NCBI GenBank assembly: GCA_030141605.1
Contig: JAQGDQ010001053.1
Coordinates: 1-64,000 of the forward strand
DNA: 64,000 bases
Source: Tubiluchus corallicola
Taxonomy: Eukaryota > Animalia > Priapulida
Direction of reading: 5' to 3'
Shown here: positions 31,277 to 55,986 of the stretch, in pieces
How positions within the stretch are numbered: the stretch's first letter is position 1
Layout of the letters: the number at the start of each line of letters is the position of its first letter
Notes under the pieces: model-generated
Databases searched by the model: none
What the model was told of the DNA's origin: nothing
What the model saw: only the letters and a program-made list of their open reading frames with translations
Program-made: the position numbers and the translations under genes

Positions 31277-31419
31277 TTAGCTAACTATGTAGCCTTTGAA
31301 TGTGCTGGCATAACTAGCTGTTGAAATGGAGGCACCAGTGTAGTATGTGACATAAACTTCATCTCCTGTTTCGAGATGAAGAATAGCAGAGTTTGATATC
31401 GTTTGCCACTCGCCACCAC
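31277..31419 (-). CDS. A2 C1q domain exon 3 (terminal)
   Basis: GGGEWQTISNSAILHLETGDEVYVTYYTGASISTASYASTFKGYIVS*; S-N-S-x-I-L-x-L-x-x-G-D-x-V and S-T-F-x-G-Y C1q motifs. Confidence 0.92.
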
Positions 31420-34400
31420 CTGCAACAAAATAATATTAATTTTAAGTACAACTTGTGTAAGAGCGAATACTAGTCACAAGGATGCATCAGTTTATCTTAA
31501 TGTCAGGATTATTGTTAACATCACAAACTGAAAATTTATAAAAGTTAGATACCAAACTTGAAAAATAGGAAATACGAAAAAGTTATATGCAGGATGGATT
31601 TGAACTAACACCCTTTTGCTTGCAAGGCAAACGCACAGCACCACGGTCCCTGGTGATCATGGTTATCCAGTGTAGCTGACTAACTGAACTAGTACTTCTA
31701 AAGTGAAAGCACTCAACCTAGACAGACTGATTTTAAGTAATTTCATCAATTCTGATTCCGAATCTGAAAATTCCATGTAGTCTTTCTTTCCTGTCCTTGC
31801 ACTGCTTGTTCTGCGACCTAAGATGTCCATTCCTAAACGATGTGACTTCCTACGACCATTGACATTAAAAGCAAAACCGGACTGAATCTTAAACTGTAGG
31901 ACAAAATAGTTTACTTTTTATAATATTGAAAGAAGGCTTACTATTTTTTCCAAAAATGACTTACGTGAAAGAATTATTACCACGCAGGTATTTTGTTATA
32001 TGCTAGATATGTTAGTTTGTGACGAACTTCACACATTCGACAGCTCATGCGTGAGCACAGCAGTAAATTTAAATTTCGAATTTTTATCTTATAACTTGCC
32101 TAGTTTTAGTACAACACACTGAATATCTAACAGCAGCACTGTACTTCAATTTTCGCCTAGATCCCAGGAAATAAACAAAGCAAATGATATTTGATTGGTA
32201 GGTAGGCTGCCGGGTAGCCCAAAGTTCTCCTCTTGCCCAAAAATGGCTAAAATAAATTGGCCCTGCTAGGGTTAACTTGAAGATGAGAGAGCCAATTACA
32301 AATTTGCAAAATTCTCTGCCATCTCCTGCCTGGGGTGACCAATTTGAGAGAAATCAGTAGACAATGTTACCTGAGCAATCAGTTTTACCTGCATTCACCT
32401 ACCTGATATCTCAACCGATGACAACCTCGACGAATCATTTTGAATGTCATTTCTGTTGTGAAACTGAAAAACGTACTTACCACCTTAAACGGCATTCCTC
32501 CTTTGATTTATCTTGGCAGCAGTTTTTACTGAGTGAAATTACTTCAGCTGTGTAATATCATTTAAACAACATTAATTTACCATGGCTTTGTCTGTTCTAA
32601 CGAGCAAGAGTCATTACCTAGTAGCACGAATGATTTCAGTGATACTTCTTCGTAGCTCTAAGTTGTAAATATTTGTAAAATTTCATGATGCTGCTCACAA
32701 GCTTAATTTTCCAGACCTGCTTCTATTTGCAGATCTCGAAAGAGCAAAATTCGCGAAAAAACTTCATTTTTTCTACAGGTCGGTTTTTGTATTAAAATGA
32801 TTTCTTGTTTTTTTGCATAATCGCAGTTTTTTAATAATTGTTAATTAGTAAGTTTATAAAGTTTACATGCCAGCATTTCATCACAGCATTGAGCATTAGC
32901 TGAAATAATTGAAATAATTGAAATAAATTAATTGAAATAATGATAAACCCAGCATGATGATGATGTTTATTGTACAGGTCCTGTGCTCTGCTCACTGCCT
33001 TGTTCTTCTTTAGGCTGTATGGTTATTTTATCGATTAATTGATTTTTTACTTAAACACTTACCTGTTTTTGATTCCTTGTGTTCAGGGGTTACTGGTATT
33101 AGTTTGAGCACCAAACAGGACAAGCCTGATTCCGCCCTTCCTGATATTGTCTCCCAATTTGGGTGCCAATGTGAGGTAACCCCTCAAGGGTAGATTCCTT
33201 TTTTATGTTTTGTGTTTAGCCAGCTAGTTGTTCATTTCGATTACAAAAATTCTTTCTTACATTAACATTTTAATTTCACAAAATCACTAAATTATGGGCG
33301 GGGCTTATGCCACTGAATCAATGCTAATTAATGTGTCCCAGGCATTTGGTTCACTAATCTCGTTTCAAGATGAGGTACTCAAACCATGGCGTCTCGCCCA
33401 CCGATAGCTCTGGTTCAAACCATCAAGGAGCTATTACAACTACCCTGGTGGCAAGTAGCGACGACAGAACAGTATTTATAGCTGTTTTATGTGTTTCAAT
33501 TTTTGATTAAGTATAACAATACTTCTTTTACAAATTATCATTACCAAACGAATTGAAATGAAGAAAACATAATTATGTTAATGAATAATTAAACTAGAAT
33601 TGTAAATAAGGTGAGTGAGCTTTAAACAATCAATAAGTAATTGACAAACGGGATGGACAGTCACCAACTTGTGAATGAATGAACAAATGAACGAATGAAA
33701 TTTAATGAATATGACATTATTGTAGAAAATTAGTTTATGTAAAAATTGTTTAGTTAAAACTCTTGAGTAATGAATTTGTTAGCATGGATGTAGACACGGT
33801 GCTTCGTTGCAAATAGTTTACTATACAAGCTTACCTGGATGATAGGGATATGCAACATTATACCCATTATGTAGAAGCTCGGCAACACCACCGTATGAAC
33901 TTCTCTGCGCCCATAGATTCAGTTCAAAAGAGTAAGTGCCTGATATAGGCGCTGTGAATTTTCCTGTAAAGTAAAAAAACCAAGTTAATGTTTACGTCTT
34001 TATCTAGTGTTTAAATTTAATTAAAAAAGTACCCAAAAGTTAATCCAAAGGTGCACATATGTGATCTTTGTTCTTTTGTTGTGTAACGTAACGTAAAATT
34101 TATTCATACTATGTAGTATGGTACATAAAATCTTAGCGCTAAAGAAAAAATGCATTTAAAAATCAAAATATTGAACTGCTGTCTATTTGCAACAGAGGCA
34201 GGGAGGATGATACTGCAGCCCTAACAGAGTTGCGTTGCAGGTTTATGCTTAAGCTAACAAATGTTTAAGCTGAAACAAAATTATTGATTCATATAATTGA
34301 ATTAAATTGAATTATCGATTTATTATTAAGCATATTGCATACACAGCTTACCGAAAAAATGACCCTGTTGGCTCGTTTGTTGCAAAGCCTGTGAGTGTAA

Positions 34401-55400: not shown

Positions 55401-55986
55401 AAAAGACATTGGAATCACAACGATTTTTTATTATAAGTGTAATTCGTTCATATTAAATATCAATTACTTGCAATTACAAATGTGTAATTACTTCTCAGAA
55501 AGGCTTACAGAATAGTCTACATGGGGTAAAACAGTACTGTGATTTCAGCTTGCTAAATATTTACATAGAAAAAACAAAATTAATTATTTTCAACAAAGGA
55601 GGTCACAGAATATCCAAGTAAAGTTTTACTTAGACCAGGATTTGATTAAATATCTGATCTGAATATTTTTGTAAAAACTATTATAGGTAAAAAAATTGCA
55701 AAGCATTAGGTACATCATTTTAGCACATAGATTTCAAAAGGAAGTACTACATACAACCTGTAAGCCATAAGCAGTTGCAGTAAACAATAAACCGTCAGAG
55801 TTAGTAAAAACATTACTATTATTCCACACAATATTTTTATCTAAAAGTACCAAAAGTACTTGTTTATACTACCTAAAAGAGCTTAATTAAAAACTAAGAA
55901 GTAGCTTTTCAAAAAAGATAACAATAAATTCACTTACCGCTTACAGCAAATACCAGTAGAATGGCTACTTTTGCAGTGACTGACAT
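31277..55986 (-). CDS. Gene A2: secreted SP-(beta-defensin-like)x3-Ig(V)-Ig(C2)-Ig(I)-C1q protein (576 aa with all exons; 449 aa without the defensin-like exons)
   Basis: Exons 55938-55986, 48405-48533, 46913-47035, 45646-45774, 43459-43776, 41635-41778, 40127-40321, 37945-38205, 36747-36857, 33835-33963 and 31277-31419. All introns are GT-AG phase 1 and the total is 1731 nt, open to TAA. Confidence 0.8.
31590..31670 (-). mobile_element. tRNA-derived SINE head / tRNA-Ala-like relic
   Basis: Minus strand GTTTGCC-TTGCAA-GCAAA anticodon arm followed by a GTTCAAATCC B-box; acceptor and D arms do not pair. Confidence 0.5.
33835..33963 (-). CDS. A2 C1q domain exon 2
   Basis: GKFTAPISGTYSFELNLWAQRSSYGGVAELLHNGYNVAYPYHP. 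Confidence 0.9.
36747..36857 (-). CDS. A2 C1q domain exon 1
   Basis: TFAFSVYYPESHYGNTGVIIKFTESQINHGNVYSSST. Confidence 0.87.
37945..38205 (-). CDS. A2 third Ig domain exon
   Basis: LKCEADANPPPTVTW...DTGEYECVATNALG. Confidence 0.92.
40127..40321 (-). CDS. A2 second Ig domain, C-terminal half
   Basis: GEEDITSSAEQ...DNNKIIRCC...SLNVL. Confidence 0.88.
40394..40710. repeat. 37-bp minisatellite (about 8 units)
   Basis: CTGACAGGGCTAGAAAATTCAG recurs every 37 bp (for example 40470, 40507). Confidence 0.9.
41635..41778 (-). CDS. A2 second Ig domain, N-terminal half
   Basis: VEPQEVKMLL...FKCIIAESNPTPEIKWYL. Confidence 0.88.
43459..43776 (-). CDS. A2 N-terminal Ig domain (V/I-set)
   Basis: DARCEYFDMQP...AELEC...VTWFKDG...DDGTYVC...AKLTVI. 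Confidence 0.92.
44697..45418 (+). mobile_element. Non-autonomous Helitron
   Basis: 5' TC(TATACT); 3' hairpin CGCAAAA-TC-TTTTGCG, then 9 nt, then CTAG. Inserted between A and T with no TSD; paralogous empty site at 46622-46650. Confidence 0.88.
45646..45774 (-). CDS. A2 beta-defensin-like module exon 3
   Basis: YQEQQCLSEGGQCALESKCNGVTVSNKCPTQPFNVKCCIGDI; C-x6-C-x5-C-x8-C-x8-CC; phase 1-1. Confidence 0.78.
46277..46590. repeat. 104-bp minisatellite (3 units)
   Basis: CTCAGATAATCTACAATGTAC... at 46277, 46381 and about 46485. Confidence 0.92.
46913..47035 (-). CDS. A2 beta-defensin-like module exon 2
   Basis: DQVELCAEIAGRCTYDDWCDNNEYVSGFCPNQPNNVKCCLG; phase 1-1. Confidence 0.78.
47476..48225. 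repeat. 104-bp minisatellite (about 7 units)
   Basis: Same unit as 46277; period 104 (47783, 47887); one more unit at 49314-49407. Confidence 0.95.
48405..48533 (-). CDS. A2 beta-defensin-like module exon 1
   Basis: VCQDQQQCMSQNGRCVLESSCWGFSVSLCPNHPSNFTCCVSYS; phase 1-1. Confidence 0.75.
49109..49313. repeat. (TA)n(GA)n microsatellite
   Basis: Direct inspection. Confidence 0.97.
49428..53186 (+). mobile_element. Ty3/Gypsy 3' remnant (RNase H end, PPT, 3' LTR) interrupted by a LINE
   Basis: 49428-49601 reads GRRFVVKTD...RIARW.L.LQEY.F..EHIPG..N..ADALSRM*. PPT GGAGAGGGGGA at 49811-49821. LTR starts TGTCA at 49825; putative end GTAACA at 53186. Confidence 0.7.
50485..53030 (+). mobile_element. 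CR1/L2-group non-LTR retrotransposon, internally deleted (2A-like motif + APE endonuclease, no RT)
   Basis: GGIESNPGP, then HINIQSL, ISETWL, GGGVAIY, VYRPP, MGDFN, IDHF and SDH APE motifs. The ORF stops just before the RT and is followed by AATAAA and a (TAC)n tail. Confidence 0.9.
53809..54505 (+). mobile_element. Second copy of the Helitron family (5' end uncertain)
   Basis: 53841-54505 is nearly identical to 44742-45418, with the same hairpin and CTAG|T end. Confidence 0.82.
54990..55700 (+). mobile_element. Degenerate LINE reverse-transcriptase fragment
   Basis: FFPVNIGVTQGCILCPVLFNLFIKD matches the RT G-V-x-Q-G-x-x-L-S-P-x-L-F motif; boundaries approximate. Confidence 0.65.
55938..55986 (-). 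CDS. A2 signal-peptide exon
   Basis: MSVTAKVAILLVFAVS G|gtaagt, phase 1. Confidence 0.82.

Follow-up and report, generated by a model that had tools for sequence, protein, structure and literature searches.

The window analyzed here is the whole stretch of 64,000 nucleotides from Tubiluchus corallicola (contig JAQGDQ010001053.1, positions 1 to 64,000 of the forward strand). It is animal DNA of 34.8% GC, with microsatellites, repeats and one N gap at 26297–26507. An eleven-exon gene, which we call gene B, runs on the reverse strand from 55986 to 31277 and is predicted to encode, in this order, a signal peptide, three six-cysteine modules, three immunoglobulin (Ig) domains and a C1q head. A tandem copy, paralog A, which was absent from the initial annotation of this DNA, occupies positions 1–16252. 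As set out below, gene B joins two known systems, the CRR modules and a QREP-like Ig plus C1q core, in a combination that was not found in the databases or literature covered.

Exon structure of gene B

When rebuilt from the genomic sequence, the eleven exons came out exactly as they had been modelled in the initial annotation. All 20 splice sites are intact (AG at each acceptor end and GT at each donor start), all ten introns are in phase 1, and the spliced 1731 nt are translated without interruption into 576 amino acids and a stop codon. A TATA-like sequence (TATAAA) is found at 56074, by exon 1, and AATAAA/ATTAAA hexamers lie at 30852–30511, past the last exon. The exons are as follows.

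Exon 1, 55938–55986, reverse strand: start codon and most of the predicted signal peptide (hydropathy peak at residues 1–19)
Exon 2, 48405–48533, reverse strand: CRR1, a six-Cys repeat; an additional Cys18 lies close to where the signal peptide is predicted to be cleaved
Exon 3, 46913–47035, reverse strand: CRR2 (Pfam Defensin_beta_2, E 0.024, below the cut-off)
Exon 4, 45646–45774, reverse strand: CRR3, a recent duplicate of the CRR1 unit (AlphaFold model, mean pLDDT 85)
Exon 5, 43459–43776, reverse strand: Ig1, V/I-type (Pfam I-set 2.2e-8, V-set 1.9e-5)
Exon 6, 41635–41778, reverse strand: first half of Ig2, C2-set (Pfam C2-set_2, 9e-6)
Exon 7, 40127–40321, reverse strand: second half of Ig2 (Pfam C2-set_2, E 0.052), with one extra Cys that is absent from paralog A
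Exon 8, 37945–38205, reverse strand: Ig3, I-type (Pfam Ig_3, 9e-12)
Exon 9, 36747–36857, reverse strand: first third of C1q (36 codons that fit Pfam C1q positions 1–37 by length)
Exon 10, 33835–33963, reverse strand: middle of C1q, the most divergent C1q exon between the paralogs (Pfam C1q 38–76, E 0.087)
Exon 11, 31277–31419, reverse strand: last third of C1q and stop codon (Pfam C1q 84–127, E 1.8e-6)

The signal peptide was judged by hydropathy only. Outside it, the highest hydropathy over 19 residues is 1.1, and a search of the protein for a collagen-like Gly-X-Y run found none, which bears out the earlier statement that collagen and transmembrane segments are lacking. We rejected a membrane receptor as the identity of the product, given that the hydropathy profile has no hydrophobic segment beyond the N-terminus. 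Extra cysteines of the protein are Cys147 and one of Cys343/344.

Two of the introns carry repeated elements. Intron 1 contains, on the forward strand at 50827–52986, a 720-codon LINE-type open reading frame with an endonuclease domain; its GIESNPGP motif near 51463 resembles 2A ribosome-skipping motifs. Two 95% identical copies of a high-copy element, which has very high depth in the public sequencing run X1, lie at 53841–54507 (intron 1) and 44742–45420 (intron 4).

Assignment of the cysteine modules to the rusticalin-type CRR family

The cysteine spacings of the modules are 6-5-7-8-0 (CRR1), 6-5-9-8-0 (CRR2) and 6-5-8-8-0 (CRR3), the last two being among the commonest in 286 modules of the family, and the six cysteines, a Gly and a Pro are invariant across all three. 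A strict form of this pattern occurs twice in the window and not once in 100 shuffles, and we therefore rejected a chance arrangement of cysteines; CRR1 escapes the strict pattern because of its extra leading cysteine. A profile built from the three modules and searched against 1.84 billion representatives (E up to 0.001) retrieved 128 proteins. Names were looked up for 30 proteins, and the sources of the named matches include nematodes, echinoderms and fungi as well as a copepod, a rotifer, a hydrozoan and a foraminiferan. The same window-only profile scored three proteins from the published CRR list (A0A1Y1UUI0, A0A1Y1UVQ8, and A0A1Y1UWV2; PMC7379824 supplement) at 49–51 bits, as compared with at most 5.3 bits for 300 shuffles that preserved the cysteines. 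A reciprocal hidden Markov model (HMM) of the module was partly circular, its inputs having been found with the window profile, and we relied on the shuffle comparison instead. Judged by these sequence comparisons, the modules of gene B are members of the rusticalin-type CRR family. According to the portions of the literature covered, this family was described from ascidian rusticalin (PMC6339383) and has been surveyed in 382 proteins (PMC7379824).

Pfam families were detected in 38 of the 128 profile matches, and in 26 of these 38 they are families that act on peptidoglycan (Amidase_2/3/6, NlpC/P60, phage-type, i-type and GH25 lysozymes, SLT, muramidase, pesticin, M15 and VanY peptidases, and PG_binding_3). 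Another three are ambiguous (C39-like twice, and GH19) and the remaining nine carry other partners. No Ig or C1q partner was present among the 128.

The AlphaFold model of CRR3 has one helix and three strands. With CRR3 models as queries, Foldseek ranked either human beta-defensin 1 or the tick carboxypeptidase inhibitor first, albeit weakly (E 1.3 or more), and 13 of the 14 rows at Z ≥ 2 in a wide VIA search were beta-defensin-fold proteins, with Z at most 3.7. The matches are weak and agree with one another, and the CRRs are predicted to adopt a beta-defensin-like fold. To this extent the original description of the modules as beta-defensin folds is supported, but they are acidic and belong to a known mobile family that normally accompanies peptidoglycan hydrolases. 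Beta-defensin antimicrobial peptides are small, cationic and free. The exon peptides of CRR1–3, by comparison, have isoelectric points of 5.3, 4.1, and 4.9, and their Pfam defensin scores are below the cut-off; as neither a stop nor a separate signal exon was found after the modules, we rejected free cationic defensins as an explanation.

The top VIA row was a segment of Cypridina luciferase (PDB 24ne/24nk, residues 26–73; Z 3.7, rmsd 2.8, 40 aligned), which was also the second Foldseek match, and on these models the N-terminal part of the luciferase may carry a CRR-like module. A PDB sequence search with CRR3 and profile A3 gave nothing below E 0.05, CRR3 had no usable match in Atlas, and none of nine candidates sharing words with the three-module alignment matched it. 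The idea of transfer by way of phage attP and tRNA, which appears in the part of PMC6339383 covered, found no support in the window, where a scan with the bacterial code setting returned 0 tRNA genes.

The Ig and C1q domains

Pfam was scored on single exons. It recovered three Ig domains, in keeping with the V/C2/I series first proposed, except that the "V" of Ig1 is a soft label, because I-set scores best on exon 5 and V-set, in second place, falls just under its cut-off. Ig3 is fused directly to C1q at the junction originally given; a linker is absent, and the two domains stand too close together for a coiled coil to fit between them (no predictor was applied).

There is a single C1q domain, at the C-terminus. 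The claim that its head is complete is best supported by exon 11, which is significant in Pfam and matches adiponectin, cerebellin and C1q-like proteins in the PDB. Exon 10 is weak, and exon 9, which alone has no Pfam or PDB match, was placed by length; neither exon gave a PDB sequence match below E 0.05. Completeness is in part our presumption, based on C1q motifs and on the length fit of exon 9.

Searches with the individual domains returned little. A protein search with the Ig1 exon yielded, among 125 candidates, only two lizard Ig proteins; Ig3 had generic Ig matches at 21 metagenomic loci, none of which had a CRR or C1q match; and phmmer, with the Ig and C1q regions as queries on a set of 225 proteins, reached E 0.26 at best, CRR with Ig or C1q not being found there.

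A tandem paralog that lacks the CRR exons

Paralog A has the promoter region and the Ig and C1q exons in common with gene B. Its exons are as follows.

Exon 1, 14419–14466, reverse strand: a 42-nt deletion has taken out the donor, and a stop at codon 17 ends the frame
Ig1 exon, 10566–10252, reverse strand
Ig2 exons, 9449–9306 and 7255–7061, reverse strand
Ig3 exon, 6448–6188, reverse strand
C1q exons, 5107–4997 and 2287–2159, reverse strand; the last exon would fall beyond the start of the window

Searches by tblastn, by HMM and by blastn detected no CRR exon in the interval from exon 1 to Ig1. With its exon 1 donor lost, paralog A is probably disabled in this assembly. Its intron 1 contains a decayed Ig1-like fragment (10859–10895, reverse strand; 84% identity over 37 nt to the Ig1 exon of paralog A), which suggests an earlier exon duplication and loss.

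Identity between the paralogs is a mosaic. It is 94% in the 5′ flank, 71% in the Ig1 exon (dS 1.29), and ~70% where alignable in the next intron, and further on it is 87–88% and then 93–96% around C1q. This pattern indicates, at the level of sequence, that the CRR–Ig1 block either escaped homogenization or entered by recombination. In all four Ig exons, nonsynonymous divergence (dN) is lower than synonymous divergence (dS). Exon 10 of C1q is only 79% identical in nucleotides, as opposed to 93–95% in the flanking introns (p = 2e-6), and many of its changes would, by the topology of C1q, lie near the apical loops.

Duplication of CRR1 and CRR3, and hints of variable module number

CRR1 and CRR3 form a recent duplicate pair (units 48373–48938 and 45614–46181). 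Their exons are identical at 95 of 126 nt (75%), as against 385 of 405 nt (95%) in the upstream introns (Fisher p = 2e-9), and their six Cys codons are identical at all 18 bases (p = 0.006).

Run X1 behaves as DNA, because it covers all 30 bins, introns included. One of its contigs passes from the intron upstream of CRR1 (199 letters, 1 difference) straight into CRR3 (119 letters, 0 differences), and thereby skips 2759 bases, i.e., CRR1–2. Since the CRR1 and CRR3 units differ at 19 of 217 columns in the joining zone, this contig is recombinant relative to the window. It is a single contig from a single run, and could represent a one-module allele, a converted intron, another locus, or a path through the assembly graph.

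Comparison with known systems

In the portions of PMC10672478, PMC6835236, PMC8878817, and PMC13619432 covered, QREPs are described as proteins with one to several Ig domains and C1q from two gastropod groups, the caenogastropods and heterobranchs. Gene B resembles them in that N-terminal Ig domains are joined to a C-terminal C1q, and it is likewise tandemly duplicated and predicted to be secreted; the domain architecture thus supports the QREP-like core recognized at the outset. The likeness is one of architecture, and gene B would work like a QREP to which a module has been added. Gene B differs by its three N-terminal CRRs, which the QREP descriptions covered do not mention, and so does not fit the QREP plan of Ig plus C1q only; paralog A does, but has lost its exon 1 donor.

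The CRR family, as far as the covered parts of PMC6339383 and PMC7379824 describe it, includes oyster PGRP-S1S/S1L, Trichoplax and Ciona lysozymes, and gut-fungal NlpC/P60 proteins. Gene B shares with these proteins the six-Cys spacing, the Gly before Cys2 and the Pro after Cys4, tandem copies after a signal peptide, and the predicted beta-defensin-like fold. However, the partner of its CRRs is a non-enzymatic Ig-Ig-Ig-C1q scaffold, whereas rusticalin-like proteins have a C-terminal peptidase M15 or other cell-wall hydrolase at the place where gene B has Ig and C1q. Bivalve SUEL/C1q proteins (PMC6835236, in the part covered) also bear a second binding module N-terminal to a C1q head, but theirs is a SUEL lectin, without CRR or Ig. 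What the CRRs share with beta-defensins, and with the tick carboxypeptidase inhibitor (PDB 1zlh), is the predicted fold, at weak scores; beta-defensins are, moreover, free peptides, whereas the acidic modules of gene B are embedded in a 576-residue protein.

The initial annotation knew of no described protein with the architecture of gene B, and we also found none, in the profile matches, the CRR table or the literature covered. The PMC7379824 table of 382 proteins has no entry for C1q, I-set, V-set or immunoglobulin, and its 70 metazoan rows name none of these. Among the 120 matches listed of 198, none combines CRR with Ig or C1q, and one has bacterial Ig-like Big_2 and dockerin domains. No description of CRR, Ig and C1q together was found in the literature, including the covered portions of PMC7430831, PMC11312191, and PMC9334734; the original QREP paper was outside this coverage and could hold a similar architecture. 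The absence of the combination is moderate evidence, because the collections under-represent intron-rich genes of unannotated animals. Shuffling of CRRs nevertheless has precedent, since they occur elsewhere on partners without an enzyme, such as C-type lectin, TIL, trefoil, and VWA domains.

A possible role for gene B, and its alternatives

We propose, with an even chance of being right in our estimation, that the product of gene B would be a secreted agglutinin or opsonin that is trimerized by C1q and has cell-wall-binding CRRs at its tips. Secreted as a pattern-recognition protein, it would trimerize through its C-terminal C1q head, as C1q domains generally do, and the trimer would display three Ig arms, each with three CRRs at the tip. 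The resulting nine CRRs would grip the bacterial cell envelope by avidity, Ig2–Ig3 would act as a conserved spacer, and the C1q apex might offer a second binding surface, for a second ligand or a host receptor; microbes would in this way be clumped and tagged for phagocytosis. The CRRs themselves might be gained or lost as symmetric phase 1 exon cassettes by unequal crossing-over. The case for envelope binding is that a single small module is attached to wall-cutting enzymes of many unrelated kinds, in the manner of cell-wall-binding domains. According to the portion of PMC10672478 covered, C1q domains assemble into trimers, and the soluble C1qDC proteins of invertebrates are mainly agglutinins and opsonins. 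The faster divergence at both ends of gene B may be read as indirect support for the idea of a two-ended opsonin.

Several observations weigh against this proposal. The gene B chain is known from genomic DNA only, with splicing predicted. As many as 90 of the 128 profile matches have no Pfam partner, and CRRs also occur on non-hydrolase partners (C-type lectin and astacin are among the nine noted above). Net charge is zero or above in most modules of the family, with 20% negative, whereas those of gene B are acidic. In the covered part of PMC12855814, the CRR pair of a Trichoplax lysozyme stabilizes the enzyme and lowers its activity at ambient temperature, does not make it a better killer (LD50 130 vs. 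100 nM), and is absent from the mature lysozyme, having been cleaved off; the CRR literature covered contains no direct demonstration that a CRR binds peptidoglycan. Finally, the CRR1/CRR3 comparison (dN 0.36, dS 0.19) is not significant (p = 0.21), and dN is about equal to dS in exon 10 between the paralogs. Because of these two results, the high intron identity could stem from gene conversion rather than from selection on the exons.

The alternative that survives best, though we consider it somewhat unlikely, is that the working unit is an ordinary QREP-like Ig-Ig-Ig-C1q protein, and the CRRs are either a pro-region, stabilizing or removable, or optional exons frequently left out in splicing. 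The stabilized and then cleaved Trichoplax pair would be its precedent, and since the exons are phase 1-1 throughout, any CRR could be skipped in frame; paralog A has no CRRs, and the X1 contig does without two of them. In a pure stabilizer, however, one would not expect the exon to outpace its own intron in divergence and yet retain all its Cys codons, and gene B has no enzyme to be kept inactive.

An unlikely possibility is that the CRRs bind proteins, either as inhibitors resembling the tick carboxypeptidase inhibitor or in docking peptidases, or else that gene B is not an immune gene at all and serves in matrix, mucus or adhesion. The tick inhibitor was the first Foldseek row (E 1.4), acidic CRRs would go well with partner proteins that are basic, CRR pairs have been proposed to inhibit or regulate (PMC6339383, part covered), and C1qDC proteins have non-immune roles (PMC10672478, likewise). 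Yet the match to the inhibitor fold is weak (VIA Z 2.3) and says nothing on function, and the bias of CRR partners toward many unrelated peptidoglycan enzymes is more simply accounted for by substrate binding. That the eleven exons do not form one product, gene B being silent or decaying or its CRR exons lying on a separate transcript, would find some footing in the decay of other copies (the lost donor of paralog A and the Ig fragment near 10895–10859) and in the LINE and MITE-like element within intron 1, but it is very unlikely given the 20 intact splice sites and intact frames, the dN below dS in the Ig exons, and a phase 1 exon scan of the gene B span that gave just one other candidate, of low complexity (54791–54600; the scan was strict and missed some true exons). 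Run X2, which we guessed to be RNA, covers only 5 of 30 bins, where the sequence is rich in repeats, and is no evidence either way.

A broader form of the agglutinin or opsonin proposal is doubtful as it stands. It would place gene B in a germline mix-and-match family, in which a conserved Ig-Ig-C1q trimer base bears exchangeable tips, made up of 0, 1 or 3 cell-wall-binding CRR cassettes and a divergent first Ig, and in which unequal crossing-over and the skipping of exons vary these tips. The targeting module of eukaryotic cell-wall hydrolases would thereby have come to sit on an opsonin without enzymatic activity, possibly in a lineage outside the gastropods in which Ig plus C1q arose independently of the QREPs.

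CRRs are widespread among eukaryotes, and their function is unsettled; roles as antimicrobial peptide, inhibitor and stabilizer have been proposed, mostly with an enzyme attached. Gene B places three diverged CRRs on an enzyme-free scaffold, with a CRR-less paralog as a natural control, and this allows a direct test of what CRRs bind. With gene B, the Ig-plus-lectin plan known from invertebrate immunity also gains a third type of module, and there are hints of copy-number variation of whole recognition cassettes.

Other features of the window

Several further features accompany the two paralogs.

20590–27137, reverse strand, between the paralogs: a gene with a SUEL-like exon (Pfam E 0.003, below the cut-off), a CUB exon (E 6e-7), a Thr/Glu-rich exon, a transmembrane-like exon and a tail with Tyr motifs, which by its sequence looks like a membrane lectin-type receptor
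27640–27796: partial duplicate of the SUEL-like exon of that gene
17402–17608, forward strand: an exon rich in Cys and similar to prokineticin/astakine/colipase (Pfam E 0.035; Atlas leads no higher than 0.85)
61480–62097, reverse strand: a 206-codon stretch rich in Tyr motifs and without a Pfam match, like the cytoplasmic tail of an upstream receptor gene
28275–29261 and 58054–59874: satellite arrays (97-bp and ~60-bp units) that give rise to long spurious open frames

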